From positions 19,187 to 83,186 of the forward strand of contig CAYHFN010000010.1 of NCBI GenBank assembly GCA_964355925.1: a DNA stretch of 64,000 nucleotides, given 5' to 3'. The notes beneath the pieces were generated by a model that saw nothing but the letters and a program-made list of their open reading frames with translations, did no database searches and was not told the DNA's origin. The position numbers and the translations under genes are program-made. The stretch comes from an uncultured Chitinophagaceae bacterium. Its GTDB lineage: Bacteria > Bacteroidota > Ignavibacteria > UBA10030 > UBA8401. Shown in pieces: positions 3,001-53,492 of the stretch (the first letter of the stretch is position 1; each line of letters starts with the position of its first letter).

Positions 3001-3153
3001 TTTTGGAATAACACTGGCACCCGACGATGTTTGAGGACCTACTGCTCCGAATGGCAGGGTTGTTCCGTAACTTCCCTTCCCGATATTAACTTGGGCAGAA
3101 ACGGTTAATGCAAAGAACATCAAAAGATAGATATTTGAGTACAATGTTTTCAT
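1..3153 (-). CDS. GH81 endo-beta-1,3-glucanase (laminarinase) with PKD and CBM6 modules and a T9SS C-terminal sorting domain; 3' end cut by the window edge
   Basis: Not in the supplied ORF track because there is no in-window stop. My translation of the minus strand from ATG at 3153-3151 stays open for exactly 1051 codons to position 1. Signal peptide MKTLYSNIYLLMFFALTVSAQ. GH81 blocks INDHNFHAGYAIMG and FDPYAGHSWEAGHGDFGDGNNEESSSESMNF. PKD module SWKFGDGKTSSSSDTVHTFSDPGTYMVTLTVTN. CBM6 module IQAENFDNGGEGVAYHDND...GEWLEYTIQVPNDGNYDI. CTD LEQNYPNPFNPTTTISYQLAAGSNVSLTVYDVLGKEV ends at position 1. Confidence 0.85.
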   Translation of the reverse strand, partial: MKTLYSNIYLLMFFALTVSAQVNIGKGSYGTTLPFGAVGPQTSSGASVIPKISSTFNKPVQTNDYWSSLIYPYFGDANSNNLHAHPLYFKAKNNGLQVGYTSSPIYPAADYQFQFSQQLTVGVVGLNVTKTVADDYGDWTVTALWDDGTRTMKATLGHGLPFAFFTISGGNASIVTSVTPTIWSNQNGVIGMTVDGRHFGIFAPDSSIWTGTTTLQSSLNGKNYFSVALLPDNTPATLEIYRQHAYAFVTGSTISWSYNETTAKLISTFTYTTELKESKNGTFNKTLTALYRHQWLNTSATLTGFKYSSVAGEMKVFDGNQFTTELTFEGVLPALPDQGDYNRADLLAMVNAITTETLPESGKLAGTYWSGKAIARFAHLVNIADQLGAVTARDYFLTEIKKRLEEWFTAGGPQSYVYNTTWKTLTGYPSEFGADNQINDHNFHAGYAIMGAAIVAQFDSVWAAKENWGGMVDLLIRDGNNYDRSDLRFPFLRAFDPYAGHSWEAGHGDFGDGNNEESSSESMNFATAVTLWGAATHQSEIRDLGIYLYATERTAIEQYWFDIDDAVFPAAYPYKALGMVWGGKGVHSTWFGNNPDFIHGINMLPFNGGSLYLGRHPVYVKANYDEVLKELSGVPATWKDILWQYLSLTDPGAALSLYFANPSYTPEDGETKAHTYHWLNNLKKMGQLDISVTADIPTYSVFKNAAGEKTYVAYNASSDSSTIHFSDGYAMKVPPRLMRSVNTTVTNINAPVALLIADKTRGKMPLSIAFTGSKSFDRNGSPLTYSWKFGDGKTSSSSDTVHTFSDPGTYMVTLTVTNQLSLSTKDSVQITVLGNGTPYSGIPVIVPALIQAENFDNGGEGVAYHDNDTKNVGLAFRPLEGVDIESAGGGDYDVYWMTAGEWLEYTIQVPNDGNYDIIPFVATVPGFGNFRILINNIDVSGKKPVLNTGGWQFWKPITISNVSLKAGKQILRIEINTDTPSEKANWLFSLNSIQVMLSSSSGVSENNSITNSLFLEQNYPNPFNPTTTISYQLAAGSNVSLTVYDVLGKEV

Positions 3154-3393
3154 TGAAACTTTCTAGTTATTACAGCAGATAATTTATCGTTGGATATTTT
3201 TCTGCCGTTGGTGAATTTCAATATATTAATGTAGTCTTTTCCTGCTTTTGCAACAACTATGACATAGTCTCATAAATAATGATCAAAGGGATAATTACGA
3301 AACCATTCTTTCAAAGGCCATAAATCCTCAATTGAGATTGGAATGATATGACTAAAAGAAGATGGTGATCGTAAAAAACAGCATTGATGATCT

Positions 3394-9160: not shown

Positions 9161-11014
9161 TTACGGCAATTGCTTTTCATTCTTTTGGTATTCGTTCATC
9201 CATTCCCAGTTAGGAAATAAAATCGGAGTAGCCGTTATGACTCCGCCAAACCCGATCATTCGGCGAGTGTACATATTTGCCGGTTGAATCGTTACCTGCG
9301 AAAGTTTTTTATACCGAACCTCAACAGTATAATTTTTAGCAAGAGAAGCAACATATGTACTCATCAAACGATTTCGTTTTTTTTCTACTAAATTGTTCCT
9401 AATATTTATGGGAATAGAATCTGCCGTTGGCATATTTATTCCTCCAATTGATCTTTTCCCAAGTACTTTAAAGAGTGAATACCCTTCGTTGGTCTTAACA
9501 GGACCGACAATTGTTCCCGTGTCTGCAATGATTGCTCTCAATGTAATATCAGGATATTTGGTCAACGGTATAAATTGAGAAACACCTGCACGATCTTTCC
9601 ATTCTGCGCGCTTTGAATATGTTCTCGCTAAATCTTCCAGAGGAATACCACGAGAATATTCGCCCCAAACATACATTGCGGTGGTCAGACTATCGCTCAA
9701 TACTTCTTGAACATTCACTTCATACGCGGTTCCTATCCTGGGAAGACTTGAACGCAATCCCTCCAGCAACTCATCATTGGAGACAGAGACCGAATCATTG
9801 ACGCGCCACATCAAAAATCGCGATATCCAATAATTTGACCACGATTGCAGGTCTCGCTGAACTGATTCAGAGTAGTGAAGATTTTGACGATATCCTTCGC
9901 GCGACATCAGTTCGGCTTCAATGATTGTGCGAAGATGATAGTTGAGCGCGCGGACAAATGAATTCTCATCGAGCAACGGAAATCCTAATCGTAGATTTCT
10001 CATTGCTTCAATCGCTTCTCCAAATAACAACGGGCGATCATTAAGTTCAACAAACGATTTCTGAATATCTGAATGGAAATACGTCAACATATGATCAACA
10101 TCTTCAGACATAACACCAAAGAGCCCTTTGTTTACGTGACGAGCAGAATCTTGAATAATTATTGTTCTCAGTTTTTTTGCAAGCGCAAAGAACAACAGTG
10201 AATCAGTTTTTGCCTTTTGCGGAGATAGTATTTTTGCAAAATACCGGCGGGCAACGATATTCTCTTTTCTCTGCCGTATCGTTTCATCAACACGGATCCG
10301 CCGATCGCCGGAATTCATTTTTTCATAGACGGGATTTGCTCCCCGGTCAATAATGAGTGCAACGGTCCAGCCATAGGTACTTGATATGAACGGTTTAGAG
10401 AATTTCTTTTTGCCAATTGCATATACTTCATTTTCAAACAATGTATCTAATCCGCCAAAATTAACCTGCACAGTTTCAACAGCAGTGATAAACGTCGGCC
10501 GGATGGTTGTTGCAATTTTTGTAAGTGAGATATTCTTATTCAACATTTTCACAAGAGAATCACCATCGGATAGACTTTTTACAGCAATGGCAACAATGTG
10601 AAGCTGCCACGCAAATTTAACAAGTCCATCCCGCATCTCACTTTCAGAAATTGTGACCTTCTGTTTCACTTCACGTTTGAATAGTTCATCACGCACGAAC
10701 ATTTTTTCCATTCCGCGGATCTTTAATTCCGTTAGTTCATCCGATCCAACATTTAGTTGTTTACCTTCGATCGCCAGTAAACGTTCCGCAACAAGTGAAT
10801 TCAAAGCTTTTATCTTTGAGGAATCATGTTGATTTGGATTTTCCTTCCCTTCCCACGGCATCAACTCGATCCGTTCGATCAGATCTCGCTCTGTAATCAC
10901 ACTGCTCCCGACACGAGCAAGAGTATCCAATGAAAGCGGTGGTGCGGTTTTCTGCGCATGAAGAAAAATACTGATAAAACATATTATGGAAATGATAAAC
11001 AAACTTTTTTTCAT
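9161..11014 (-). CDS. SurA/PpiD-like periplasmic chaperone with parvulin-type peptidyl-prolyl isomerase module
   Basis: 617-aa ORF with signal peptide MKKSLFIISIICFISIFLHAQ. Long helical SurA-N-like region. Parvulin-like segment near the C-terminus (IVGPVKTNEGYSLFKVLGKR). The stop lies 1 nt from the upstream GH5 gene. Confidence 0.55.
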   Translation of the reverse strand: MKKSLFIISIICFISIFLHAQKTAPPLSLDTLARVGSSVITERDLIERIELMPWEGKENPNQHDSSKIKALNSLVAERLLAIEGKQLNVGSDELTELKIRGMEKMFVRDELFKREVKQKVTISESEMRDGLVKFAWQLHIVAIAVKSLSDGDSLVKMLNKNISLTKIATTIRPTFITAVETVQVNFGGLDTLFENEVYAIGKKKFSKPFISSTYGWTVALIIDRGANPVYEKMNSGDRRIRVDETIRQRKENIVARRYFAKILSPQKAKTDSLLFFALAKKLRTIIIQDSARHVNKGLFGVMSEDVDHMLTYFHSDIQKSFVELNDRPLLFGEAIEAMRNLRLGFPLLDENSFVRALNYHLRTIIEAELMSREGYRQNLHYSESVQRDLQSWSNYWISRFLMWRVNDSVSVSNDELLEGLRSSLPRIGTAYEVNVQEVLSDSLTTAMYVWGEYSRGIPLEDLARTYSKRAEWKDRAGVSQFIPLTKYPDITLRAIIADTGTIVGPVKTNEGYSLFKVLGKRSIGGINMPTADSIPINIRNNLVEKKRNRLMSTYVASLAKNYTVEVRYKKLSQVTIQPANMYTRRMIGFGGVITATPILFPNWEWMNEYQKNEKQLP

Positions 11015-11015
11015 A

Positions 11016-13007
11016 TTATTTTATAACTATAAGTTTTTTTGTTTGTTGAAATTCTCCGGCATGCAATGTATAGAAATAGATCCCTGCGGCAAGATCCGAT
11101 GCAACAAATTTCGCGGAATAACTTCCTGCGGATTTGCGTTCATTCACTATTGTAGCAATTTCTTTTCCAAGAATATCTTTTATGGTGATCGTTACCTGAT
11201 TGCTGACAGGGATTGTATAATTGATGGTTGTTGCAGGATTGAACGGATTCGGATAATTTTGTTCGAGAGTAAATTGTTTTGGAAACGATTGTTCATCGTC
11301 AACAGACATTACACCAACATACGCGATATCGAAATAATTGACATTGAAACCGCCGAAAAAGAATGCTGTCTTTAATATATGGGTTCCTGCAGTCAGATCA
11401 AATTTTCCGATGCTTTGTGTCCCCCACGACTGATATCCACCCGTTGCCAAGACGCTGGCCACAGTAAGAGGACCTCCGTCAACACCAACTCCGATCGATC
11501 CGCCTGTATTAGGTGCTGCAAGGCGTGCTGCGATATTGTATTTACCATCCTGTTGTACGGTGATCGTAAATGTCAAATATTCTCCCGATGCAGTCCACCC
11601 AACATTGTATCCATTGTTGATCGCATCGGTGCATTTTTCAATATCCACACCATCGTTACGAAATGACCAGCCGGTATTCCATGCCGTGAAAGGATTATTA
11701 AAATTTTGAAAATCATTATCTTTATATGCGCCGAGATTTTTTCCTAGATCATAATTCACAGCAAATATCTTTCCAGGGACAGTATTGACCGTAAAAGGTT
11801 TATTCGTCGTCTCAAACGGCTGCCGTATCATCGCATCGACAACGTCGGGACGGAAAATGCAGTTTTGCAATTTCAACCCTTCAGCCATTCCCATCAATCC
11901 TTTCATTGCAACTACTGCGGTAGGCTTTGCTGTTTGTCCTTTCCAATACTTTATCAGAGTTTCATACTCAGGTGTATTAGGAACAGAGTACGGTCCAGCA
12001 ATTGTTTCGAATTTCTTCAACGTCCACCATGACCAGCCGATCTTGTTTGCTTCCATCATTGAGATACAATCTGTGAACCAAGTATTTGAATTTTCTCCGG
12101 ACTCACCGAGCCATAACGGTCTATTTTCGGCAGTACGCAGGGCAAGAAGATAGTTGATCGTTCCAATATCGTTCGTATTCCAGTATTTATGGAAACTATA
12201 GACCAAATTTTTATCCCACGCAGGAGTAAGTCCGCCGAAGTCTGTAGCATACCAATTCCCTTCTGCAAAAATGATATGATTAGTATCAACCTGACGAATT
12301 GCACTTGTGATGGAAAGATAGAGGCTCCGTAATGGAACATTTCCGGTACCAAGATTCCATGCCGGTTCATTGAGAATATCGTAACCGCCGATCCATGGTT
12401 CTTTTGCATAACGTTCAGCAAGTTTTTTCCATAACGCAACGGTGAGAGTTTTATTCGATTCAAGATCCCATAATGAAGGGTACAATAAATTATAGTCACT
12501 GATAGCATTCGCGCTTTGTCCACCGGGAGCTGCGTGAAGATCAAGAATAAGATACATTCTATTGTCACCGCACCATCGCAACAGACTATCCATTACAACA
12601 AATCCGGATTCGATCCATACATCAGGCTGGTTTTGTTTTACGAAGAATTGAAAGTGCATCGGCATGCGGACGGAGTTAAATCCAAGCTGTCCGAGCCGCT
12701 CAATATCTTTTCTCGTAACAAAATTGGATCTAAACGTAGTAAAGAATGTATCGACATTTTGCGGACCGACGACTTCGACAATCTTATTCCGAATCTCCCA
12801 CGCCGCATTTGCAAAATCCGACATGCCGAACATATATCCTTCGGGAACATGCCATCCGCCGAGTCCCATACCTCGCAGGATCACTTCTTCATTTTTTTCA
12901 TTGACGATCTTTGTTCCGGACACTTTCAGATACCCTTGAGCAACACTGATTGAAGAAAATAATACAATGAATATGAATAGTTGAAAAATAGTTATTATGC
13001 TTTTCAT
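11016..13007 (-). CDS. GH5 beta-glucanase with CBM6 and T9SS CTD
   Basis: 663-aa ORF with a signal peptide. GH5 blocks VILRGMGLGGWHVPEGYMF, acid/base YDILNEP and nucleophile WLGESGENSN. CBM6-like NDGVDIEKC...GWTASGEYLTFTITVQQDGKYNIAARLA. CTD LEQNYPNPFNPATTINYTI...KKLIVIK. The ATG overlaps the upstream stop (ATGA at 13004-13007). Confidence 0.85.
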   Translation of the reverse strand: MKSIITIFQLFIFIVLFSSISVAQGYLKVSGTKIVNEKNEEVILRGMGLGGWHVPEGYMFGMSDFANAAWEIRNKIVEVVGPQNVDTFFTTFRSNFVTRKDIERLGQLGFNSVRMPMHFQFFVKQNQPDVWIESGFVVMDSLLRWCGDNRMYLILDLHAAPGGQSANAISDYNLLYPSLWDLESNKTLTVALWKKLAERYAKEPWIGGYDILNEPAWNLGTGNVPLRSLYLSITSAIRQVDTNHIIFAEGNWYATDFGGLTPAWDKNLVYSFHKYWNTNDIGTINYLLALRTAENRPLWLGESGENSNTWFTDCISMMEANKIGWSWWTLKKFETIAGPYSVPNTPEYETLIKYWKGQTAKPTAVVAMKGLMGMAEGLKLQNCIFRPDVVDAMIRQPFETTNKPFTVNTVPGKIFAVNYDLGKNLGAYKDNDFQNFNNPFTAWNTGWSFRNDGVDIEKCTDAINNGYNVGWTASGEYLTFTITVQQDGKYNIAARLAAPNTGGSIGVGVDGGPLTVASVLATGGYQSWGTQSIGKFDLTAGTHILKTAFFFGGFNVNYFDIAYVGVMSVDDEQSFPKQFTLEQNYPNPFNPATTINYTIPVSNQVTITIKDILGKEIATIVNERKSAGSYSAKFVASDLAAGIYFYTLHAGEFQQTKKLIVIK

Positions 13008-15937
13008 TTGAGTATCACCATTTTTTTCTGCGAAGAATATGTTCCCGCATGTAATTGATAGAAATAGATTCCGCTCGATAATTGAAATCTTGTACTTGAA
13101 AATTGATATCGATGAATGCCGGCTCCTTGCTCGTCATCGATCAACGAGGCAACTCTTTTCCCAAGAACATCATAGAGAGTCAGCAGTACATTACTCTTTT
13201 CAGAAAGTTGATATTCGATCACCGTTGTTGGATTGAACGGGTTGGGATAATTTTGTGACAAACTAAATTCAGTCGGGACATTATTTTCTTTCCCTTGTAC
13301 CGATACTACACCTGTACCAAATGCTTCTATTCCGAACCACAATGTTTTTGAAGATGATTGATCGAGTGGAACTGTATACATATTGGGCGAAACAGGATGC
13401 AATAATACTGATTCGGAAACTTGTCCCGTTGCATTCAGTGAGTGTACAATAATAGAGTCCGCCTGCATCACAAGTGAGAGTTGAACATTGAGCGGCTGCA
13501 TCTGCGTCGGTATTTGTCCCCATTTGTCGTGCACTGTTCGAATTCCATCCCAAACCATATTCGTATTTTGAAGTCTGGATGAAATAGTGATTAACGAACG
13601 ACGTGAATATCTCAGTGAATCATCGGTTAGAGAAACCCAAGTAATCGTTCCAAAATCATTTGCGGATTTTACAGTCATCGGTCCGACGGCAACATTGGGA
13701 AACGAATTCAATAATCCGGTAACGCCGGCAAATTTTCCTGATGATGCCGTAAATATTCCATCGGTATTCCAAACCAATTCCTTTGTATCGCTCACGTATG
13801 GATTGACAGGAGCGGAAGGTAATGCGGCAAAATTTGTTGTGCTTGATGCGGAATACGATTCAGTCCGAACGCCGTATTTCAATGCAAGTTGTTTAGGATA
13901 GAATGATAGTCCTTGCCAGCTTCCATCATCAATCATCGGAGCGAGCATAATTGTTTCGGGAGAGAATTGAATCGAAAGCAATTGTTTATAGCGTGAAATA
14001 AATCCATTGCGGTATGCATATGCACATGACGGCATTAGTGACATCATTGCCGAGTTTCGTGAAATGTTGAAGTACCCGTTCTGTTTATCTGTTTCCCAGT
14101 CATCGGATGTGCCGTTATAATCGAAGAACATCAGTCCATCCACATCATGAAACGATGCATACGAAGAAAGGAACAAAACACCTTCCGTTTGATACCGATT
14201 GGGGAACGCATGATTATATTCGCTGATGGTGTACGGTTTATTTTTCATGCCGACACCTGCCATCAGATCGGGAATTGTTCCTCCCGACGTCGATTTTACC
14301 ATCGGTGTATTATTGATAAGCCAATCTGTTGAAGACCATGGTATCGATGGAAATGATGGATGATCCCAATACGAATGATTGTCCATGTAATCCATCGACT
14401 CCTGGGCAGAAAGATCTGCAGAACCGACATTCCAGTTTGTTCCAACGATTGGAACTTTTACACCGAGTGAATCTTTGAGATACGAACGTATCTGAGTATA
14501 AAAGTCTATCTCGATCTTTAGAGTGAATGCAGAAATATCTTTCACTCGTTGCTGCGTAAAACCGCTGCATTCACTGTATTCGATCCTGCGGACATTTCCG
14601 GATTCGATCGATTCGTTCGGAAGAAGTCCCTGCGTACTTGGCTGTGTTACCGAAATCTCATCGAACCAATACGTTCCTTTTTGTCCGCCAACGACAAAGG
14701 CAATCCGAATGTCATTCAGAATTGTTTCCGATGCTCGAATGATGTACGAATAATTTTTCCATTGCGGCGTAAGTTGTATCGACATTCCGCCGTACCACGT
14801 ATACGGACTTGTTTCTTTCGTTATCATCGTCGATATCGTTCGAGTGCTGTCTGAACGCGCAGCAAATTTTACAATGTAAATTGAATCCTTTCGAATCGAT
14901 AATCCAACTTGTTTGAATTGCAAATGCCAATCCGTACCATCCACTTGCGAGACAGTAACTTTTCCGGAAAAATTTCCTTTGTATGCACCGGTAAGGTCAT
15001 TCGATATTGCCGCTTGTGCCGCGCCGTTTTTTTCTATTAACCAATTTGCTGAAATCGATGCATTCTCAAATCCTCCTTCGCGAACCAGTTCAGATGATGT
15101 GCGGTCAACCAAACCGATATTCCAAGCGGTCTGCAATTCAGTGGTTGACGGATATTTTGATTTGAGAAATGAGATCCATAAACTATCCAGCATGTGTATA
15201 TGCCTCATCGCTAATTGTCCGCCGAACGCTTTGGGTTTCAAAACACCATCTCTCCATGAACGATAGAGTGAATTCTCATTCGTTATTTCCATCATCGCCA
15301 TTACCGGATCGTTCGGCAATGATTTTCCTGTATATGGATTGATGTGTGTAAGCAGTTGTTTGGCATACTCTTTATGGAGAGCAATATGCTGCGGGTCAAA
15401 ATAGTTCACGATCTTACTGAATTCTGGAAGCGAATCATAATCCGGCACGTTATCTTGTACACGGAATGTTCTGCTCACATGAAGATTCATATTGATGTAG
15501 ATCCCGTTCTTTTTCATTTCCGCGATCATATTTTCCATACGATCCAGCGTTACGGGATTCAAATGACGGGTATCTTTCCCCGATTCAAAGATGCTTTGCG
15601 CGCTCCATGGATTATCCAAATGATGAAACCGAACAAGATTGAAACCCATTTTACGAAGATGTCCCGCAATGAACCAAGCTTTGGTCTTCGTTGGGAATGC
15701 GGCGTCGGCGGCAAAATTAGTTCCGAAAAATCGAATGGGTTTTTCTTGAACTGAAAAATGTCCATTACCATCAATTGATACAAAATCTTGATCACTGATA
15801 ATTTTGGCTGGAAAGTGAGGCAGAAACATGCTCAAAGCAGTATCCTGGGCCGGGAAAGAAAAATTAAATCCACTGCTGAACGATTGCGAAATCCCCTGCT
15901 GAATAATTACAACAATAATAAACAAGAATTTTTTCAT
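13004..15937 (-). CDS. Large secreted TIM-barrel glycoside hydrolase (cellulase/GH5-superfamily-like) with CBM-like middle region and T9SS CTD
   Basis: 977-aa ORF with a signal peptide. N-terminal region IRFFGTNFAADAAFP...LRKMGFNLVRFHHLDNPW and MEITNENS (NE acid/base context) is typical of clan GH-A barrels. GGFENASISANW suggests a CBM4_9-type module. CTD LSQNYPNPFNPTTVIEYQL...KKMVILK. ATGA overlaps occur at both ends. Confidence 0.55.
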   Translation of the reverse strand: MKKFLFIIVVIIQQGISQSFSSGFNFSFPAQDTALSMFLPHFPAKIISDQDFVSIDGNGHFSVQEKPIRFFGTNFAADAAFPTKTKAWFIAGHLRKMGFNLVRFHHLDNPWSAQSIFESGKDTRHLNPVTLDRMENMIAEMKKNGIYINMNLHVSRTFRVQDNVPDYDSLPEFSKIVNYFDPQHIALHKEYAKQLLTHINPYTGKSLPNDPVMAMMEITNENSLYRSWRDGVLKPKAFGGQLAMRHIHMLDSLWISFLKSKYPSTTELQTAWNIGLVDRTSSELVREGGFENASISANWLIEKNGAAQAAISNDLTGAYKGNFSGKVTVSQVDGTDWHLQFKQVGLSIRKDSIYIVKFAARSDSTRTISTMITKETSPYTWYGGMSIQLTPQWKNYSYIIRASETILNDIRIAFVVGGQKGTYWFDEISVTQPSTQGLLPNESIESGNVRRIEYSECSGFTQQRVKDISAFTLKIEIDFYTQIRSYLKDSLGVKVPIVGTNWNVGSADLSAQESMDYMDNHSYWDHPSFPSIPWSSTDWLINNTPMVKSTSGGTIPDLMAGVGMKNKPYTISEYNHAFPNRYQTEGVLFLSSYASFHDVDGLMFFDYNGTSDDWETDKQNGYFNISRNSAMMSLMPSCAYAYRNGFISRYKQLLSIQFSPETIMLAPMIDDGSWQGLSFYPKQLALKYGVRTESYSASSTTNFAALPSAPVNPYVSDTKELVWNTDGIFTASSGKFAGVTGLLNSFPNVAVGPMTVKSANDFGTITWVSLTDDSLRYSRRSLITISSRLQNTNMVWDGIRTVHDKWGQIPTQMQPLNVQLSLVMQADSIIVHSLNATGQVSESVLLHPVSPNMYTVPLDQSSSKTLWFGIEAFGTGVVSVQGKENNVPTEFSLSQNYPNPFNPTTVIEYQLSEKSNVLLTLYDVLGKRVASLIDDEQGAGIHRYQFSSTRFQLSSGIYFYQLHAGTYSSQKKMVILK

Positions 15938-17607
15938 TTCAATACTATCATCCTTCGAATCTGTGAGAATGTTCCTGAAGAAAGTTTATAAAAATAGACA
16001 CCGCTTGATAATTGGTACCGAGATGATGACAGCGCGATCGAATATGATCCGCGATCTTGTTCTTCATTCACCAACACTGCTGTTTCTTTTCCAAGTAAAT
16101 CATAAAGTTTCAACGAGACAATACCTATATTAGCAATACTGTAATGAATGATCGTGATTGGATTAAACGGATTTGGATAATTTTGGAATAGTGTAAACTC
16201 CGTTGGAGTTTGATTACTGTTCCCCGAAACAGTTAACGGAGAACCTGTCAGTTCAATATCGATCCAGTTCGTCCGGTCTTTGATCCACTTTTTAAGATAC
16301 GTTATTTCATTGGTGTAGCTTCCTCCGACATACACATTGGGCCATACATATGAATTCAATATCGGCCATTTAATAAAATTCCGTTGTTGGGATTCTGAAA
16401 GATGCACAACCAATGAATCGATGAACGTATTGATCTTATTCAACGAGAATTGATTCTTACGCAGATCAATCCATCGTGATTTCACTTTTCCCATAAATAT
16501 TTTGTCTTGGAGCAATCGATTCCACCAGAACGGCGGCTGAAATTGATCGACCGATTTGAATGAATCACTGGAATTAAAATAGGTCAACTGCCATCCATTG
16601 ACCAGAGAAGCATAATAATAATTGCTATTTCCAAAACCATGATTGTAGTCCCAAACAGGTCCAAGAAAAAGTTTATTGTTTTTTGAATCTCTATCTTTAT
16701 ACAAATAAAAGCTCAAGCGAAAACCGTCAACATTTTTTGTCAATTCATTGATTAGAAAATAATCGATCGCTGAGCTTACATCAAGGATCTTTGAATACCC
16801 TTTGACGGTATCGTTATATTCTGGCATCATCATGTTCACTTCAAAGTTAAACATAAAGTTCTTGATGTATGTCTTCTGATCCTCAGTAATATCTTCCGGT
16901 TTTGGATATGTATATTGATATAAGATTTTTTGCTTTGCACCATAGAATGGAGCAAATGTAGAATACCATCCTTCGTTTCCGGTTATATCAAGTTTATCGA
17001 TCTTAAAAATGTAACCACCAGTCAACGCATCGCCGGTAGTGCCGGTAGAATCAAGTTTCGAGATATTCACTCGATTCTTGTCCCGTTTGATCTTTTCAAA
17101 CAGCATATAAACACCCCTGTATTCTCCGTTGATCACAACTTCACAATATCGTGTTCGGCTGGCATATCGTCCGATGGAATTTGAAAGTGAATATGTTATT
17201 ACATCTCTCATCAAAGCCTTGTCATTATATTGCGCCGATAATATCCAATCACTTTCTTCCGGAAAACCCAGCAATGGAACATCGATACTTGAACCGAACG
17301 TATCACGCGTTTCAAATCCATACTGTTTTTTAGGGAACATTTGAGAAGATGAACCTCTTATTTCAATACCGATCTTTCCGTTATAATGATTGAGAGAATC
17401 AGTAAGATTGTTCCTTTTCCCTTCACCATTGTAAATGATCCCCATATCAGCAGTGATCTTCGGGTCATCGACAATGGTCTGTCCGTTGGAATTGATGACA
17501 ACAATGGGAAGATTCGATGATGTAAATGTCTGTGCTACAATTTTTGTTGTTCCAATGCTGCAGAAACAAACAATAAGTAAAACAAATTCACATGCTGGCT
17601 TTTTCAT
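15934..17607 (-). CDS. Secreted CotH kinase-fold family protein with T9SS CTD
   Basis: 557-aa ORF with a signal peptide. CotH-family blocks PKKQYGFE, YCEVVINGEYRGVYMLFEKIKRDKNRVNI and GPVWDYNHGFGN. CTD LFQNYPNPFNPITIIHYSI...RRMIVLK. Confidence 0.75.
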   Translation of the reverse strand: MKKPACEFVLLIVCFCSIGTTKIVAQTFTSSNLPIVVINSNGQTIVDDPKITADMGIIYNGEGKRNNLTDSLNHYNGKIGIEIRGSSSQMFPKKQYGFETRDTFGSSIDVPLLGFPEESDWILSAQYNDKALMRDVITYSLSNSIGRYASRTRYCEVVINGEYRGVYMLFEKIKRDKNRVNISKLDSTGTTGDALTGGYIFKIDKLDITGNEGWYSTFAPFYGAKQKILYQYTYPKPEDITEDQKTYIKNFMFNFEVNMMMPEYNDTVKGYSKILDVSSAIDYFLINELTKNVDGFRLSFYLYKDRDSKNNKLFLGPVWDYNHGFGNSNYYYASLVNGWQLTYFNSSDSFKSVDQFQPPFWWNRLLQDKIFMGKVKSRWIDLRKNQFSLNKINTFIDSLVVHLSESQQRNFIKWPILNSYVWPNVYVGGSYTNEITYLKKWIKDRTNWIDIELTGSPLTVSGNSNQTPTEFTLFQNYPNPFNPITIIHYSIANIGIVSLKLYDLLGKETAVLVNEEQDRGSYSIALSSSRYQLSSGVYFYKLSSGTFSQIRRMIVLK

Positions 17608-17620
17608 GATAATCGTGATG

Positions 17621-20494
17621 CTATTTCACTAAAAGTATCTTTTTAATTGAAATAAAATTTCCTGCCTGCATTCGGCAGAAATACATTCCTGACGGTATAT
17701 GTTCTCCGTTAAATTGTACAGAATATTCACCGGCAAGCTGTTGTCCGTTCACTAACATTGCAATCTCTTTCCCCAACAAATCATATAGTATTAAGGAAAC
17801 CTGTTGATCCGATGGAATTGTAAACCGAATTGTTGTCGTTGGATTGAACGGATTGGGATAATTTTGATACAAAGCAAACGTTTGCACAATTGCTCCAGTG
17901 TTCTGTACACTTGCTGTTGATGCAATGGAAAATATCGGACTAGTTGAAAGAATATTACTATCCAGAACAGAACTAATCTTAATCGTATAGATAGAATCGA
18001 TAGACAATCCTGTTGTTGGAACTTTCCAAATATACCGACCAGTATTTTCAGTACTGTCTTTGATCTTCAATGCTAATGTACCGTTCTTATATAATCTGAT
18101 ATTTACACGCTCGTCAAAATTATTTTCATATTTCAATTGATATGAACTGTTCAGTAAGAATTTTGCATTCAATGTTGGATAGAGAACAGAAATAAAAATG
18201 CCGCTTGTAGTGAATGCTCCTGTTGAAGACCACCCGCTTTTCCCTTGTTCATTGATCGCTTTTGAACGCCAATAATATTTTTTATTCAGTTCGTAACCGC
18301 TCCAAAGTTTATAGGATGAAGTCAGCATTGAATCGTTGAATACAATTGTTGAGAATGTTGAATCCTTCGCTATTTGCAAATGCGAGCCGGTGATGTGTCC
18401 ATCCGTACTCCAGCGGATCAGCACCGGTTTTGTCTGATTCACCAGTGCACTCATCAATGGGGAGACGATCTTCGGCTGCGCAGGATTTGTTATGGTCATC
18501 GGGATCCCGATAATGAATTCACCGAACTTCGTGGTAGTAACGGAGAGCGAACGTTTTGCCGCATTATAGACTGTCGTCAGCGGAATGAACATTCCGGATC
18601 CTTCAAATTCCCTGCCGTAGATGATCATATTGTTCACGTAGGGACTCGGCTGAATGATGGTGCTGTCGATGGTAATATCCGCAGTGAATGAAGTGATCCC
18701 GGACTGTTCGATGACGATCCTTCCGGAATACGTCATCGGAGCAAGTTCGGGGAATTCCATCTTTGCAGGAGAATATGCATACCGTTTTACCATTATAGCA
18801 TTATATCCGAACACTGCATCTGTCAATTTGATGGAGACACCTGTTCTGTTCGTATCTCCTTTGTTGAAAGAGTATTCATTCCCGGGAAGGATCTCTGCTA
18901 TCTGAACTTCGCCGGCAGGCTTCAATGGTGCGTTCCAAACATATTTCAGTGCACGGTAACTCGGCATCTTGTCCAGTGATTCCATTTCGAACAGGATCGA
19001 ATCTTTCGGACTCAGTTCGGTGATCATCGTTTTTCCCACACCGACAAAACTTGCTGAACCCCAGCCAATCACCGTGTTTCCGTTCGGCAAACGTTGCACG
19101 GAACCGCGTGTCGGCGCATACACTTCAGGCATATGATGATACTGCCACACCTGTGTCGCTGTCTTGTTCACCTGATCGATCTTATATTCGACGACGCGCG
19201 AGACCATCGGCACGTGGAGATTTCCATTGTCGAACATGAGAAAATTCCCGTTTGGGAGGCGTTTGAAACCGTGAGCGAAGGTAAAGTAGGCCGGTTTATT
19301 CGCTTCATTCTCTCCAAAGAACGTAAATTGATTGTTCTTTCCTCCCATTCTCCACATGAACTCTCCGGTCACACGGTTTACCTTCACGACCTCACACGTG
19401 TTGCGGAAAGCAAAAAGGAAATTCCCATCCGCATCCATATCATACGCATTCACATGGATGTAGTCGAACGCAGCAGCGGTCTGATTCATGTACGTTTCCG
19501 GGACGGCGATATGATCCCAGCTTCTCCATTGAAAAACAACATTCTTCTGCAGATCGAGTTCCTGAATGATGGAACCGACGATGATCGCATTAGCATTTCC
19601 GCCTGGAATGATCTTGCTGAGATCCATATACTGAATGTCGTACGCATGCAGCACTACATGGCCGTTTGCCAGCATCTGAAATTCATGCGTGTCGGCATCA
19701 TATCCGTTCCCCGCCCGGAAACTGTCCACCGCCGCAAATGAGGTGTCGACCACACGCTGCACGCAGCGGCTTCCGCCGGCATATCCCCAGTCGCTGAACG
19801 GATCTGCATAGGTCAGCAGTCCGTTCGGCTGCACTTTGAAATCATATACGTGTCCCGGTCTGCGCTGATATTTGATCACTTTTCCGGCATTGTCGATCAT
19901 ATAAAAAAAATGACCGACCCCCGCAACATCGTCGGATGTGGTCATGAAGAAATATCCCGGTGACGGGTCATTCACTTTTGTGACTGTGAATTTCGGAAAA
20001 TCGGCCGGGAGCGAATCAGCGGATGAAGACATCGGCTGGAGTTCCATATTCTTTGAAACAGGAGGTTCCGGCCTCTTCACAACATTTCCTTCTTCCGTCA
20101 CCATCAGCGAACGGTAGAGCGGCTCTGCCTGCGGGGTAACTGTAAAGGTGAATTCTTTTACTCCGACATATTTTCCGTTCAATTTCACCGTGACGATCTC
20201 GGACGGATCGAACGGAGTCTTCGCATGGAACAGTATCGTATGTCGGTCATCGGACAGCATGAGAGCACCAGGATGAACTCCTGAATGTGAGCCGGTCACA
20301 CGGACGGATGCCGACGCGAGAGCGGACGCATCCACAGGATCGACGCTGCGGAGTATGATATTCGTCTCGCGCGAATTGAATTGTGAATTCGGAACCGGAG
20401 AGATATAGGAAAGTGATTGCGCCATCATCTGCCTGGAACAGAGCATCGTTATGATGAGTAAATAGTGTAATGATCTCATGATTACTTCTTTCAT
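17621..20494 (-). CDS. Secreted arylsulfotransferase (ASST)-like beta-propeller protein with N-terminal Ig-like, C-terminal Fn3-like modules and T9SS CTD
   Basis: 957-aa ORF; the start may be the internal MRSLHY. ASST/Arylsulfotran_2-type blocks HEFQMLANGHVVLHAYD, FDYIHVNAYDMDADGNFLFAFRN, VVKVNRVTGEFMWRMGGKNNQFTF, HGFKRLPNGNFLMFDNGN and VQRLPNGNTVIGWG. CTD LYQNYPNPFNPTTTIRFTI...KKILLVK. Confidence 0.7.
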   Translation of the reverse strand: MKEVIMRSLHYLLIITMLCSRQMMAQSLSYISPVPNSQFNSRETNIILRSVDPVDASALASASVRVTGSHSGVHPGALMLSDDRHTILFHAKTPFDPSEIVTVKLNGKYVGVKEFTFTVTPQAEPLYRSLMVTEEGNVVKRPEPPVSKNMELQPMSSSADSLPADFPKFTVTKVNDPSPGYFFMTTSDDVAGVGHFFYMIDNAGKVIKYQRRPGHVYDFKVQPNGLLTYADPFSDWGYAGGSRCVQRVVDTSFAAVDSFRAGNGYDADTHEFQMLANGHVVLHAYDIQYMDLSKIIPGGNANAIIVGSIIQELDLQKNVVFQWRSWDHIAVPETYMNQTAAAFDYIHVNAYDMDADGNFLFAFRNTCEVVKVNRVTGEFMWRMGGKNNQFTFFGENEANKPAYFTFAHGFKRLPNGNFLMFDNGNLHVPMVSRVVEYKIDQVNKTATQVWQYHHMPEVYAPTRGSVQRLPNGNTVIGWGSASFVGVGKTMITELSPKDSILFEMESLDKMPSYRALKYVWNAPLKPAGEVQIAEILPGNEYSFNKGDTNRTGVSIKLTDAVFGYNAIMVKRYAYSPAKMEFPELAPMTYSGRIVIEQSGITSFTADITIDSTIIQPSPYVNNMIIYGREFEGSGMFIPLTTVYNAAKRSLSVTTTKFGEFIIGIPMTITNPAQPKIVSPLMSALVNQTKPVLIRWSTDGHITGSHLQIAKDSTFSTIVFNDSMLTSSYKLWSGYELNKKYYWRSKAINEQGKSGWSSTGAFTTSGIFISVLYPTLNAKFLLNSSYQLKYENNFDERVNIRLYKNGTLALKIKDSTENTGRYIWKVPTTGLSIDSIYTIKISSVLDSNILSTSPIFSIASTASVQNTGAIVQTFALYQNYPNPFNPTTTIRFTIPSDQQVSLILYDLLGKEIAMLVNGQQLAGEYSVQFNGEHIPSGMYFCRMQAGNFISIKKILLVK

Positions 20495-22656
20495 TATTTA
20501 AGAACGACCATCCGTTTTGTTGAAGAGAACGTACCGGCCGTGAGGGTGTAGAAATAGATACCGCTTGGTACCTGGTGCTGTATCAGTGAAAATGGAACGC
20601 GATACGTTCCAGATATTTGGTATTGATCGACAAGCTGAACGATCTCTCTTCCGAGAAGGTCATGAATTCTCAATGAAACATTACTGTTTTCGGCAAGGGT
20701 ATAGAAAATGACTGTTTTCGGATTAAATGGATTTGGAAAGTTCTGCAAAAGCGAAAATTCATTTGGTGATTTATCCAAAGTATTTTTTATCGATGCTGCA
20801 ATAATTTGTTTTACGGATACATTATCGATCAGTACATCAATGTCCGATAATCCGCAATTGAATGCGATACGAGCATTATTATCAGATGCATCTTGCATTG
20901 TGAAATCGAATAAAAAGTGTTTTTTCAATGTTGTGAGTGCTATAGAACCGGTTTTACTATAATTGGTGTTTGGCGCTGCAATCATCACAACTTTCGGATC
21001 GATGGGCCGGCTCGCTGCTGCATACGCATCGAATTCAAATCGATATTTCAATCCATTGATCAGCGGAATTCCATCTTGTGACAACTGCACATGCCACGCT
21101 TGAGTGCCGCCATTCCCGATCTGCGCAAGGAATTCTCCGGTACCGCTTACGTACGGTGCACCAACAGCAGGTGATGTAATGGCATAGTTCCATGACGATG
21201 TTCCGCCAGAAAAATCCCCATTGATGACAAGGTTTTCTCCCGGTGCAAAAAATTTGATAATAGTATTTTCTTCGTTTGAAAAAGGACTTTCATTTCCGAA
21301 ACCGTCCTTTGCCGTAACACGAAAATAATACCGCTTTCCATTTTTGAATCCTGTAAGATCGACTGCCGATAACGAAGTCGAATCGATCACATGGGTTGGA
21401 TTCATAACAGTATCGCAATAGAGTATGAAATTATGGTTTGGAGCTTGATCGAACTTGTTGATGAGCAATGTGATCTTATCAATTCCGGATTCAAGGTTAA
21501 GCATTGGGGCTTTTGCTTTTCCTTTCCATGGGAAACGAAACACTCTATAACTATGAGCACTTTTTACAAAATCCAGTTCCATAACTTTTACGCCGGCGGG
21601 TGTCACTTCTGTCAATTTCGGTAATGACCCGTCAGCCCAATTGATCAGTGTATTGCCATTCGGAAGCCGCTGAACATTTCCCATCCACCATGTGTATCGG
21701 TCAGGAACATTGCGATATTGCCAGACGAGTGTTGCAGTCATTGCAATTGTATCTAACACGTACTCAACGGCACGGGAGAACGACGGAACATGAAAATTTC
21801 CATTGTCCATCATTGTATAATGACCATTTCCTAAAGCGCGTACGTCGTGCTGGTACGATGTACCATTGTACGGATCATTGATAAATGTGAATTGATTATG
21901 CTTCCCGCCGAGTCTCCACATAATGGCTCCGGTCTTACGATTGATCTTTGTGATCTCCGAAAGATGGCGGCTCGAAATGACAATGTTACTGTCACTGTCT
22001 ACTGAAATTGCATTCATGTGAATATAATCGATCGATTGCGCAGTCAGGTTTTCATGAACCGCATCGATTATATCAAGATTGTCCCAGCATTTCCATTCAA
22101 ATACAATGGCTCCGCTTGGATTGATTTCCTGTATATTATTTCCGATTACCGTTGCGTTTGTTTTCCCACCGGTCACAAGTTTACTCATATCAATTGTTTT
22201 GTATTCGAGTGCAATCAGCAAAACATTTCCATTAGGAAGTATTTGTAATTCGTGCTCATCAGTTCCAAATCCATTCTTTGCCGTAATCTCTCGTGTAACA
22301 CTGTAGGATGAATCCATTTCGTAAAAACGGTAATACGGATCGGCAAGACGATACGACAACATTCCATTTGGTTGTAATTTAAAGTCACGCGCATTGGCAA
22401 GCATTTTTCTATAAAAAACCGGTGAGCCGTTGTTATCAAGAATTGCAATGTACGGCGCCCCCCCCCAGTTGTTAATGAAAATGAAACCTGAGTCAGGATT
22501 GTTCTTTACAGTGATCTTCACATGAGGATAATCAGAAGGAACTGAAACACCATTAGGAAAAACAAATGCAGTTGTTGAAGGTTTTAGTGTGATCGATTGT
22601 GAACTAAGAATCGAACAACATAATATTGTCAGTAATAATATTGGTAGATTTTTCAT
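20494..22656 (-). CDS. Second secreted ASST-like beta-propeller paralogue with Fn3/CBM-like modules and T9SS CTD
   Basis: 720-aa ORF with a signal peptide. Same propeller blocks as the neighbour: HELQILPNGNVLLIALE, IDYIHMNAISVDSDSNIVISSRH, ITKINRKTGAIMWRLGGKHNQFTF, HDVRALGNGHYTMMDNGN and VQRLPNGNTLINWA. CBM4_9-like NGDFSGGTSSWNY. CTD LLQNFPNPFNPKTVIFYTL...KRMVVLK. The stop shares 1 nt with the ATG of the downstream paralogue. Confidence 0.7.
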   Translation of the reverse strand: MKNLPILLLTILCCSILSSQSITLKPSTTAFVFPNGVSVPSDYPHVKITVKNNPDSGFIFINNWGGAPYIAILDNNGSPVFYRKMLANARDFKLQPNGMLSYRLADPYYRFYEMDSSYSVTREITAKNGFGTDEHELQILPNGNVLLIALEYKTIDMSKLVTGGKTNATVIGNNIQEINPSGAIVFEWKCWDNLDIIDAVHENLTAQSIDYIHMNAISVDSDSNIVISSRHLSEITKINRKTGAIMWRLGGKHNQFTFINDPYNGTSYQHDVRALGNGHYTMMDNGNFHVPSFSRAVEYVLDTIAMTATLVWQYRNVPDRYTWWMGNVQRLPNGNTLINWADGSLPKLTEVTPAGVKVMELDFVKSAHSYRVFRFPWKGKAKAPMLNLESGIDKITLLINKFDQAPNHNFILYCDTVMNPTHVIDSTSLSAVDLTGFKNGKRYYFRVTAKDGFGNESPFSNEENTIIKFFAPGENLVINGDFSGGTSSWNYAITSPAVGAPYVSGTGEFLAQIGNGGTQAWHVQLSQDGIPLINGLKYRFEFDAYAAASRPIDPKVVMIAAPNTNYSKTGSIALTTLKKHFLFDFTMQDASDNNARIAFNCGLSDIDVLIDNVSVKQIIAASIKNTLDKSPNEFSLLQNFPNPFNPKTVIFYTLAENSNVSLRIHDLLGREIVQLVDQYQISGTYRVPFSLIQHQVPSGIYFYTLTAGTFSSTKRMVVLK
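22458..22466 (-). repeat. Homopolymeric G9 tract (C9 on plus strand) inside the ASST-like paralogue 2 coding sequence
   Basis: Plus strand reads gcg ccccccccc agt. Minus strand reads AAC AAC TGG GGG GGG GCG CCG, encoding NNWGGAP (about aa 64-66). It is the longest G/C homopolymer I saw in this AT-rich window. Confidence 0.9.
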
Positions 22657-22713: not shown

Positions 22714-24279
22714 TTATTCTACTATAAATTTTTGCGTACCCTGTTTCATCTGTATTGTTTTCTTTTCTCGTCCGTCAACTGACACGTTCAGTTCAAACGG
22801 TTTATTGGCAATTACATGAATCTCCGCCGAACTTCCGACACTGATCCGCTTCTGACAGATTAGCGTTGCGGTGATATCGCCAAACTTTAATCGTTCAATT
22901 CCATGCCTATCTATTCTATTAATATTCCAAATCAATTTGTTGTTAGCTCCATCGGGATGTAAACCGATCACATTTTCGAGCAATAACTCTATCGGTCCGC
23001 AGCCCGTCCATCCAACAAAATCTTTTTGCGATGGATTTCCCCGCATCATCAGATCAGGGGAATAATTCTCCCACAACGTACCGGTCTTTTTGTATACAAC
23101 ACACAAGCCGTCCAGATATTTTTCTGCGGCGACAGATGCAAATTCGTTGAAAGAATAATCGGTCTGATTATCGCTTTCGCGACCGAACTTCTCCAATCCT
23201 TTTATGATCATCACATTGGTCGGAGCCCAGACGCCGCCGAGCCAATATTGTCCATCAGGTTTATACTCTTTTTCATCTGCAGCGAGTGACGGGAATGGAA
23301 TTGAACGCCAGAACGATTGAGGATCTTTTAGATGTGCCAGAAGCTGTTTTGCCTGTTTTGCATCTGCGATGCCGGCAAGCATTGGCCAGAATCCTGCAAC
23401 GCATTTCAATTTTTGTTGTACACCATTGTCATCAACATTATAGTAGAATCCATCCTGTTCATTCCACATCAATTGATTGATCCGATGAGAGATATCATTT
23501 GCTGCTGTTTCATATTTTTTTGACTCACCGTTCTGCTTCACTTCCGCACACATAAACGCAAGGTTGCGATAAAACAACACCATCTGCGAAGACATATCAA
23601 CCCAGCCCGATCCTTGCAGCGGCAAATTATCCATTCCCGAGCCGAGTCCGGTATTCCAATACAATCCATGGTTCGTATTCTTTTTTTTGCGATTCTTCTC
23701 CAGCCATTCAGCATATTTTTTAAGAACCGGAAGAACCGATTCAAAACGAGATTTGTCTCCGGTGACTTTGTATGATTCGACTTCCGCCCATGCAAACAAT
23801 GGAGGATTCACGGTATGTTCTCGTCCGACAAAAACATAATCTTTACCATCTGCTTCTTGAATTTCGCGGCAGATGTATCCATTTTCATATTGCCGAGAAT
23901 AAAAATTATCGAGCGATTGGATCGCAGGAAAGATCGAATGTCCGTAACGGGCAAACATCAGCATAAAGATAGTGTCCCATTGAAAAACGCTGGGAGAGAA
24001 TGCCTCATCGATATAATTAGAGACGAACGGCGAACCAAGAGGCGGTTTTTTGAAATGATCGAATGCCAGTGCCCAAGCCTTCCAATACAATTCTAAATAT
24101 TCGGGATTATTTTCAAGGATGGGTGACGGTAGGTCTGCGCGATGATCTTTGAACAATGGAATGGACGAATCTATATATTGTTTTTTGGAAAAGTAAACAC
24201 CTCGTTTTCCGGTATCTTCATATTGAGCAAATGAATACTGAGAGAACGATAACAATATTAATAATACTATTCTTTTCAT
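22714..24279 (-). CDS. Secreted (alpha/alpha)6-barrel glycoside hydrolase, GH63 / trehalase (GH37)-like
   Basis: 521-aa ORF with signal peptide MKRIVLLILLSFSQYSFAQ. Blocks WDTIFMLMFARYGH, NPPLFAWAE, GLGSGMDNLP, FWPMLAGIA, YWLGGVWAPTNVMIIKGL and LWENYSPD resemble six-hairpin glycosidases. The exact family was not determined. Confidence 0.55.
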   Translation of the reverse strand: MKRIVLLILLSFSQYSFAQYEDTGKRGVYFSKKQYIDSSIPLFKDHRADLPSPILENNPEYLELYWKAWALAFDHFKKPPLGSPFVSNYIDEAFSPSVFQWDTIFMLMFARYGHSIFPAIQSLDNFYSRQYENGYICREIQEADGKDYVFVGREHTVNPPLFAWAEVESYKVTGDKSRFESVLPVLKKYAEWLEKNRKKKNTNHGLYWNTGLGSGMDNLPLQGSGWVDMSSQMVLFYRNLAFMCAEVKQNGESKKYETAANDISHRINQLMWNEQDGFYYNVDDNGVQQKLKCVAGFWPMLAGIADAKQAKQLLAHLKDPQSFWRSIPFPSLAADEKEYKPDGQYWLGGVWAPTNVMIIKGLEKFGRESDNQTDYSFNEFASVAAEKYLDGLCVVYKKTGTLWENYSPDLMMRGNPSQKDFVGWTGCGPIELLLENVIGLHPDGANNKLIWNINRIDRHGIERLKFGDITATLICQKRISVGSSAEIHVIANKPFELNVSVDGREKKTIQMKQGTQKFIVE

Positions 24280-39943: not shown

Positions 39944-39961
39944 AATGACTATCGTTTAGAG

Positions 39962-43051: not shown

Positions 43052-43073
43052 TGTACACTCCTGAACTTATGAT

Positions 43074-53473: not shown

Positions 53474-53492
53474 ACTATATCTTCTAATGAAA

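Follow-up and report, generated by a model that had tools for sequence, protein, structure and literature searches.

Candidate accessory transferases in a T9SS-linked beta-glucan utilisation array: a CotH kinase-fold protein and a two-gene cassette of arylsulfate sulfotransferase-like propellers

A 64,000-nucleotide stretch of DNA from an uncultured Ignavibacteria-like bacterium (contig CAYHFN010000010.1 of assembly GCA_964355925.1; this whole stretch is hereafter the window) carries a beta-1,3/beta-1,4-glucan utilisation array that is linked to T9SS (type IX secretion system), with a TonB receptor and no SusD. Within this array, on the minus strand, lie three genes that encode no glycosidase: one for a CotH kinase-fold protein and two for arylsulfate sulfotransferase (ASST)-like propellers, termed ASST1 and ASST2, whose coordinates in the list of open reading frames (ORFs) match those of an earlier note on this DNA exactly. 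Analysis of these proteins and their relatives reveals that each retains core catalytic residues of its fold, that CotH proteins bearing a C-terminal T9SS sorting domain (CTD) recur beside glucanase genes in several lineages, and that the ASST pair is a two-gene cassette in a variable slot of the locus and not an obligate partner of CotH. What is new is the context and the architecture; the folds themselves are already known. Whether the three proteins serve as surface-displayed accessory transferases at beta-glucan, with CotH-CTD as an accessory of such loci in the Fibrobacteres-Chlorobi-Bacteroidetes (FCB) group and the ASST pair as a cassette of the Cpz4 type, we regard as evenly balanced. 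The features concerned are as follows.

15934 to 17607, minus strand: 557-aa protein of the CotH kinase fold, made up of a signal peptide, the CotH domain (aa 81-449) and a T9SS type A CTD (477-555).
16648 to 16734, minus strand: CotH active-site motifs, N292-V-D294-G-F-R-L-S299 and W-D320-Y-N322.
17621 to 20494, minus strand: ASST1, 957 aa, probably 952 aa with a start at nt 20479.
19271 to 19687, minus strand: ASST1 catalytic residues H270, H347, N349, R364 and H408 (957-aa numbering), codon positions verified.
20494 to 22656, minus strand: ASST2, 720 aa (Pfam, NCBIfam).
20854 to 21234, minus strand: carbohydrate-binding module (CBM) CBM4_9 of ASST2, PF02018 at 2.3e-14.
21847 to 22254, minus strand: ASST2 catalytic residues H135, H213, N215, R230 and H270, codon positions verified.

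Pfam profile searches bear out the fold assignments made in the earlier note, with matches to PF08757, PF05935 and PF14269, and public automatic annotation names the homologues 'CotH kinase family protein' and 'aryl-sulfate sulfotransferase'. Specifically, PF08757 matches CotH at 2.4e-60 (205 bits, the cutoff lying at 23.8) over profile positions 1-322 of 322. The AlphaFold2 (AF2) model of CotH (pLDDT, the predicted local distance difference test, of 80) is predicted to share the atypical kinase fold of Bacillus cereus CotH, the only Foldseek match at E <= 0.001 (5jda/5jd9; for 5jda E 2.6e-14, TMt 0.75), while other matches of the model are confined to stretches of ~90 residues resembling immunoglobulin (Ig) domains or CTDs. 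Both propellers score above the gathering score of both sulfotransferase families: PF05935 at 5e-33 (115 bits) and PF14269 at 2e-25 (90 bits) for ASST2, and at 2.5e-25 (90 bits) and 5e-21 (76 bits), respectively, for ASST1. From its N-terminus, ASST1 consists of a signal peptide, a Big_5-like Ig domain, a disordered linker and the sulfotransferase propeller (~aa 165-525), followed by a beta-sandwich, fn3 and Kre9-like Ig domains and a T9SS CTD (879-954). Its AF2 model (pLDDT 82.8) contains a predicted six-bladed propeller that matches Cpz4 (9kf4; E 6e-27, TMt 0.68) and Escherichia coli ASST (3ets; E 7e-17) in Foldseek. ASST2 is built of a signal peptide, a Cpz4-like six-bladed propeller (~aa 30-385), a weak fn3-like stretch (~424-461), the CBM4_9 (475-601) and a T9SS type A CTD (640-718); its fold is assigned by sequence, with Cpz4 (9kf4) matched at 1.7e-36 in a comparison with the PDB.

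The catalytic residues of both propellers were mapped by aligning a profile of 11 propellers to 3elq, the chain numbering of which was verified residue by residue, including the H436N mutant entry. In ASST2, H135, H213, N215, R230 and H270 correspond to His252, His356, Asn358, Arg374 and the sulfo-histidine His436 of E. coli ASST, and none of the five varies among 33 homologues. In ASST1, H408 is the equivalent of the sulfo-histidine and H270, H347, N349 and R364 form its coordinating set; across 34 homologues the three histidines are invariant and N349 and R364 at least 90% conserved. Conservation of these residues extends in both families to homologues of ~38-45% identity, and the Ig-propeller-Ig-CTD layout of ASST1 is similarly conserved. 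The position of E. coli Thr501 is not kept, being Met325 in ASST2, Arg in ASST1 and Gln in Cpz4. A reading of the ASST-like proteins as degenerate propellers was considered and rejected on account of the invariance of the five core catalytic residues.

For CotH, PMC7821199 describes inactivation of the B. subtilis protein by mutation of D228, the catalytic residue, or of D251, which binds metal. D294 and D320 of the window protein align with D224 and D247 of the B. cereus chain, whose spacing of 23 residues is that of the B. subtilis pair, and the mapping is founded on D228/D251 as cited in PMC7821199 together with this conserved spacing. None of D294, S299 and D320 varies among 32 homologues. 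The suggestion that these folds were recruited with loss of their own chemistry is thus at odds with the residues themselves, the sulfo-histidine set and the CotH Asp pair being intact, with Ser in place of Asn in CotH and the loss of Thr501 as departures. In the reading favoured here, CotH most likely remains able to bind a nucleotide and to pass phosphate, or some related group, to a target where polysaccharide and enzyme meet.

Consistent with an extracellular role, each of the three proteins matches both PF18962 and TIGR04183 (type A sorting domain) at its very C-terminal end (Pfam, NCBIfam), and the CTD is similar to the solved T9SS substrates 8glj/8glk. Each N-terminus, judged by eye, has K/R ahead of a hydrophobic segment; the AF2 models of CotH and ASST1 place a helix at residues 2-17. 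The CTD and N-terminal Sec signal expected of T9SS type A cargo, the latter recognised by inspection, are therefore present in each protein, as the earlier note had proposed, and predict a location at the cell surface. With regard to gene junctions, the 13-nt gap between ASST1 and CotH was confirmed, as were the ATGA overlaps that join the CotH gene to a downstream 977-aa gene and the latter to a GH5-CBM6 gene (GH, glycoside hydrolase). The claimed 1-nt overlap between ASST2 and ASST1 is more likely a 14-nt gap: the junction reads TAATG, but ASST1 has two in-frame ATGs (window 20479-20494), and since Met6 is the start both in the public gene call and in 79%-identical homologues (952 aa, nt 20479), the stop/start overlap disappears. 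Tight spacing is the norm throughout the array, in which ~25 genes on the same strand are separated by intergenic distances of -4 to 207 nt, and is nothing particular to ASST2, ASST1 and CotH.

CotH-CTD relatives were identified in at least 587 GTDB species of the Ignavibacteria, KSB1, Calditrichota, Neomarinimicrobiota, Cytophagia, Rhodothermales and Chitinophagales. When 80 CotH-CTD loci were surveyed over +-10 kb, a GH16 gene lay within 10 kb in 21 of them as opposed to 0 of 76 random T9SS-cargo loci, and any GH family of the window operon in 25 of 80 as opposed to 4 of 76 (Fisher p = 2e-5), a comparison to be read with the knowledge that the control is crude, its loci being shorter and from another collection, and that the CotH loci are phylogenetically related. 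The control loci were drawn by a generic CTD motif from a scan of metagenome contigs begun with the ASST2 alignment, in which the only true ASST loci are L091-L094. The enrichment agrees with a Pfam census of 87 immediate neighbours, among which were GH5+CBM6 (7), a second CotH (6), GH16 (4) and LTD (4). GH5-CBM6 is the commonest conserved neighbour of CotH-CTD, adjoining it in L001, L003, L007, L171 and L019, and CotH adjoins either GH5-CBM6 or GH16-malectin in metagenome-assembled genomes (MAGs) labelled Ignavibacteria, KSB1 and Cytophagia. Examples include the order GH16-malectin-CTD, CotH-CTD, GDSL-lipase/TPR in two KSB1 genomes (L005/L006 8146-13770) and a 'Cytophagia' MAG (L020 2022-7551), and the order GH5-CBM6, CotH, sodium:solute symporter in an Ignavibacterium album MAG. 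A counterpart of the ~977-aa gene after CotH is found as a 980-aa ORF in L012 only, and by tblastn in 1 of the 80 CotH loci. The co-occurrence with hydrolase loci that the earlier note had thought worth surveying thus holds for CotH as an enrichment near GH16, GH5 and GH3 genes, most copies lying elsewhere.

In three loci, larger CotH paralogues stand directly upstream of CotH-CTD (L001 7544-9979, L016 6722-10267 and L065 6646-9345). Their Pfam modules comprise CHB_HEX_C/Fn3-associated domains in L001 and L016 and LTD in L016, plus a CTD, and the L065 paralogue is recognised solely by the CotH active-site motif.

The ASST genes display a different distribution. The order GH63-like, ASST2, ASST1, CotH, GH5-CBM6 is also found in L007 and L171, and without CotH in L008, while L012 has an ASST1-like gene followed by CotH and a 977-aa-like segment; the gene order is therefore not unique to this genome. 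The GH63-like gene marks the upstream side of a variable slot in L001, L003, L007, L008 and L171, and between it and CotH the slot holds a second CotH (811 aa) in L001 and an unannotated 947-aa CTD protein in L003. ASST2 and ASST1 are adjacent in 7 of 9 contexts examined (the window, L007, L008, L009, L010, L171 and L173), and at least ten further pairs share contigs. Because ASST genes occur in only 2-3 of the 80 CotH loci, the trio is not a unit, and the view of the three genes as one module gives way: the ASST pair and CotH are each found apart, mostly outside glucan loci. A separate case is L172, where an ASST-CBM4_9 gene ends an array of TonB-dependent receptor (TBDR), 1037-aa protein, PorV, GH9 and GH16-malectin genes and represents an independent recruitment to a glucan array.

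In its base composition, ASST1 is a mosaic. The GC content at third codon positions (GC3) is 0.50-0.62 in the first seven 300-nt blocks of ASST1 (window 18400-20494), against 0.29-0.36 in its last two blocks and 0.29-0.42 in all 24 other array genes. Relative to the homologues P0242-P0244, residues 1-700 of ASST1 are 83-84% identical and residues 701-957 63-65%, while P0247 presents the reverse pattern (69% in the N-terminal and 77% in the C-terminal part). Together these data suggest that the N-terminal part of ASST1 was recently replaced by recombination from a higher-GC relative. The GC-rich part also contains, antisense to ASST1, a 215-aa ORF with a TTG start (window 19094-19741, plus strand), which most likely owes its existence to the raised GC there and does not represent a gene.

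An alternative explanation is that the cassette is a hitch-hiker, a mobile two-gene unit in a permissive slot that serves an end unrelated to glucan use, such as phenolic sulfate turnover, detoxification or sulfur scavenging, and we consider this unlikely. Stand-alone pairs or triples beside unrelated genes (L009, L010, L173), the other cargo that the slot holds in relatives (the second CotH of L001, the 947-aa protein of L003), the recombinant mosaic of ASST1 seen in GC3 and the phenolic nature of ASST substrates in vitro (PMC13426309) would all fit it. Retention of the cassette in the same slot at CotH identities of 59-70% (L007 and L171; ASST1 in L012) is harder to accommodate, as are the independent placement of ASST-CBM4_9 at the end of the different TBDR-PorV-GH9-GH16 array of L172 and the resemblance of the ASST2 CBM to a beta-1,3-glucan binder.

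That resemblance is one pointer to a glycan. The best solved match of the ASST2 module is the laminarin-binding CBM4-2 of Thermotoga maritima Lam16A (1gui, E 7e-10), the next CBM4 structures, of the cellulose type, following at E >= 0.02, and the architecture of propeller, CBM4_9 and CTD is present in 120 of the 120 ASST2 homologues listed. An argument from a module shared between ASST2 and the 977-aa protein, both of which carry a CBM4_9, was dropped, as BLASTP similarity between the two modules is undetectable. A 2026 review (PMC13426309) describes a preference of Cpz4 for a sugar hydroxyl as the group to be sulfated, and states that bacterial aryl sulfotransferases (ASTs) accept only aryl sulfates as donors. 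Of the roles that the earlier note had considered, a glycan-directed one is accordingly favoured for ASST2 by its constant CBM4_9, the likeness to 1gui and the sugar-hydroxyl sulfation of Cpz4, while de-decoration of sulfated glucans is weak: the predicted substrates are neutral, the donors are aryl sulfates only (PMC13426309), and the finding of no sulfatase in the window further lowers the weight given to desulfation.

From these observations we infer a scheme that covers co-expression, the chemistry performed, substrates, donors and benefit for glucan use. Three non-glycosidase proteins, catalytically intact by their residues, would be produced together with the glucanases and, like other T9SS cargo, reach the cell surface. 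CotH-CTD would be a conserved accessory of FCB-group glucan loci, a Gram-negative, T9SS-tagged counterpart of dockerin-tagged cellulosomal CotH, exerting there the nucleotide-dependent group transfer proposed above. ASST2 and ASST1 would act as sulfuryl transferases of the Cpz4 type, with a sulfo-histidine as intermediate and no need of 3'-phosphoadenosine 5'-phosphosulfate (PAPS). Tethered to beta-glucan by the CBM4_9 of ASST2, the pair may move sulfuryl groups from aryl-sulfate donors onto hydroxyls of the glycan, its oligosaccharides or matrix-bound phenolics, sugar hydroxyls being plausible acceptors by analogy with Cpz4. The cassette itself would have come into the variable slot by recombination.

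A protein-directed alternative, in which co-secreted T9SS cargo or surface proteins are phosphorylated by CotH and sulfated on Tyr by the ASSTs, so that glucanase assembly, stability or adhesion is tuned, appears distinctly unlikely, despite several points in its favour. The sole demonstrated activity of CotH is Ser/Thr phosphorylation of coat proteins (PMC7821199); the substrate table of PMC13426309 includes tyrosine-containing peptides that bacterial ASTs sulfate in vitro; and reviews of cellulosomes suggest structural or regulatory roles for CotH. Moreover, a CTD motif is present in ten array genes, which offers many potential co-secreted targets. The array nevertheless contains no CotB/CotG-like Ser/Lys/Arg-rich repeat protein (maximum 12 S/T in any 30 consecutive residues), the obligatory CBM4_9 of ASST2 speaks for a glycan address, and the donor problem, whether of ATP or of aryl sulfate, equals that of the glycan-directed scheme.

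Several points weigh against accessory transferases at beta-glucan. We know of no supply outside the cell from which these enzymes could draw ATP or aryl sulfate, and of no benefit in charging the predicted substrates (laminarin, curdlan and mixed-linkage glucan), which are neutral. Some 70% of CotH-CTD loci lack the GH families of this operon within 10 kb, the enrichment in the remainder was measured against the crude control described above, and roughly every second independent ASST context stands by itself, with a pair or triple amid unrelated genes in L009, L010 and L173 and ASST1 alone in L174. Co-transcription of the array is deduced solely from gene spacing. Within CotH, the catalytic-loop Asn (B. 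cereus N229, five residues past the catalytic Asp) is replaced by Ser299, and Ser occupies this position in 71 of 77 orthologues and invariantly in the clade. The ATP-binding Lys was not located in sequence and profile alignments to 5jd9, which stop short of the N-lobe; K93 and K94 are conserved, although equating either with the B. cereus residue would be conjecture.

A further alternative, which we judge quite improbable, is that CotH, and possibly the propellers, merely hold substrate or organise enzymes, comparable to the CotH invasins of Mucorales or the proposed wall binding of fungal cellulosomal CotH. The lack of ATP in the extracellular space would be in keeping with such a role, as would speculation that cellulosomal CotH binds plant cell walls, and the Asn-to-Ser exchange could mean altered or lost kinase chemistry. 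Mere binders would not be expected, however, to keep the CotH Asp pair and the five residues of the sulfo-histidine set invariant or at least 90% conserved down to ~40-50% identity, and ASST2 already carries a dedicated binding module.

A broader proposition extends the transferase reading: FCB bacteria may display a new class of carbohydrate-active transferases, composed of CBM-tethered Cpz4-like His-sulfotransferases and CotH phosphotransferases, that charge beta-glucans or their oligosaccharides extracellularly from donors other than cytosolic PAPS or ATP. We hold this with very little confidence. Were it true, charging could loosen insoluble glucan, mark or privatise released oligosaccharides for the TonB receptor, or block the enzymes of competitors, and the same logic would account for the CotH proteins of bacterial and fungal cellulosomes.

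The array in which the three genes reside was characterized by profile searches, which bear out the hydrolase setting described in the earlier note with GH81, four GH16, two GH3, two to three GH5, GH9, GH2 and GH63-like genes. The neighbouring features referred to are these.

1 to 3162, minus strand: GH81 gene; signal peptide, GH81 (5e-61), PKD, CBM6 and T9SS CTD motif; truncated by the window's left edge.
7065 to 9116, minus strand: GDSL-TPR gene, in the window apart from CotH and GH16-malectin.
11016 to 13007, minus strand: GH5, CBM6 and CTD gene (Pfam).
13004 to 15937, minus strand: 977-aa downstream neighbour of CotH; sub-threshold GH5-like region, CBM4_9 and CTD.
22714 to 24279, minus strand: GH63/MGH1-like hydrolase (Pfam), upstream edge of the variable slot with the ASST pair.
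32565 to 34376, minus strand: GH16-malectin gene, in the window apart from CotH and GDSL-TPR.
43074 to 45836, minus strand: TonB receptor gene, followed by a 1029-aa protein without a Pfam match and then a PorV-like gene.
50514 to 54812: sigma-54 activator/response regulator, histidine kinase and extracellular solute-binding protein, directly upstream of the array with a 423-nt gap.

In order of transcription, the array begins with a 470-aa protein without assignment, CBM9-CTD, the TonB receptor, the 1029-aa protein and the PorV-like protein, continues with GH9-CTD, GH2-CTD, GH16-malectin-CTD, GH3, GH16, a major facilitator superfamily (MFS) transporter and a ROK kinase, and then with GH16, GH16, GH5, GH63/MGH1-like, ASST2, ASST1 and CotH. 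After CotH come the 977-aa GH5-like/CBM4_9-CTD protein, GH5-CBM6-CTD, a peptidyl-prolyl isomerase (PPIase)-like protein, GDSL-TPR, CBM9, GH3-PA14 and GH81-PKD-CBM6-CTD. The GH81 gene at the left end of the window confirms the beta-1,3-glucan focus of the locus. The GH5 match of the 977-aa protein is sub-threshold (E 4e-4, aa 66-165), and Pfam gives no family match over the ~480 residues between its CBM and CTD. No window ORF of at least 200 aa matches the SusD family in profile searches, which sets the locus apart from a canonical SusC/SusD polysaccharide utilisation locus (PUL), and sulfatases and sulfate-related genes, looked for in the window, were not found. Scans for promoters and terminators yielded nothing above chance between genes, the sigma-70 consensus used being unsuited to this bacterial group. 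The sigma-54 two-component genes and solute-binding protein at 50514-54812 are likely the sensor and regulator of the glucan locus, and the nearest relatives of the window are MAGs labelled Ignavibacteriae or Bacteroidota.

The triad of TonB receptor, 1029-aa protein and PorV-like barrel (window 38912-45836) is also found ahead of GH9 and GH16 in L172, and the PPIase-like protein of the locus is encoded at window 9161-11014. PorV and a PPIase are T9SS translocon partners in solved complexes (title of PDB 8gl8), and the glucan locus may carry its own T9SS cargo-handling paralogues in the PorV-like and PPIase-like proteins.

Glycan-foraging loci are usually read as sets of hydrolases, binders and transporters, and yet a pair of transferase folds with intact active sites has here been built in repeatedly. 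The value of these loci is that they make two long-standing orphan activities testable, namely what CotH does outside the cell and what bacterial aryl sulfotransferases do in nature; for the latter enzymes, 40 years of study have identified no natural substrate (PMC13426309). The ASST-CBM4_9 fusions give these sulfotransferases a candidate address, the beta-glucan surface, and if they do sulfate sugars without PAPS they would be useful biocatalysts. For CotH, the window type offers a simple, soluble, single-domain Gram-negative version for testing.

Comparison with known systems delimits what is shared and what is not. A search for literature that connects either CotH or ASST with T9SS, PULs, laminarin or Ignavibacteria brought up no relevant paper. 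Cpz4 of Streptomyces caprazamycin biosynthesis (PDB 9KF4/9KF6) is the closest solved relative of both propellers (phmmer E ~1e-35, profile 1e-52), and its conserved His, His-x-Asn, Arg and His motifs align with both. Unlike the 720- and 957-aa T9SS cargo proteins of the window, to which a CBM4_9 (ASST2) and Ig/fn3 modules have been added, Cpz4 has 472 aa in a single domain and belongs to an antibiotic pathway of an actinomycete; the window ASSTs have no genes for donor synthesis (type III polyketide synthase, PAPS-dependent sulfotransferase) nearby. The periplasmic ASST of E. coli CFT073 (3ELQ/3ETS) shares the six-bladed propeller and its five catalytic residues, His252 to sulfo-His436; the sequence relation is distant (profile E 1e-13), Thr501 has no conserved counterpart, and the window proteins, which are not periplasmic, lack DsbL/DsbI partners in the window.

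Bacillus CotH (B. cereus 5JD9/5JDA, B. subtilis) likewise has the same fold (TMt 0.75) and conserved D228/D251 equivalents. It differs in that identity is 18%, and in that the window protein is secreted, belongs to a non-sporulating lineage, has Ser for the catalytic-loop Asn, carries ~80 extra N-terminal residues and a CTD, and has no gene for a CotB/CotG-like substrate nearby. Kinase-fold enzymes that phosphorylate sugars outside the cytosol do exist, in the form of the Fam20B xylose kinase and POMK (Fam20/PKL), which act in the ATP-supplied lumen of the Golgi and endoplasmic reticulum (ER). To our knowledge, glycan kinase activity has been reported for no CotH.

The earlier note saw no obvious role for the CotH activity outside a glucan-degrading cell; extracellular CotH is an already recognised puzzle of cellulosomes. 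Dockerin-bearing CotH is an established but unexplained component of bacterial and fungal cellulosomes, as exemplified by CseP/Cthe_0044 and Cthe_0239 of Clostridium thermocellum, Ccel_1101 of R. cellulolyticum and the dockerin-CotH proteins of anaerobic fungi. Like these, the window protein places an exported CotH domain in an extracellular polysaccharide-degrading apparatus beside GH5, GH9 and GH16 enzymes, and the paralogues found beside CotH-CTD bear LTD and Fn3-associated modules reminiscent of Cthe_0239 (LTD-LTD-Fn3-CotH), a likeness drawn from description and not from sequence. Unlike them, it has a T9SS type A CTD and no dockerin match (Pfam), its hosts are Gram-negative members of the FCB group, and its gene lies within a TonB-receptor-linked beta-glucan locus. 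Three devices of unrelated kind, namely the dockerin of bacteria, that of fungi and the CTD of T9SS cargo, thus tie CotH to extracellular polysaccharide degradation, which argues strongly for a real function of CotH in polysaccharide deconstruction.

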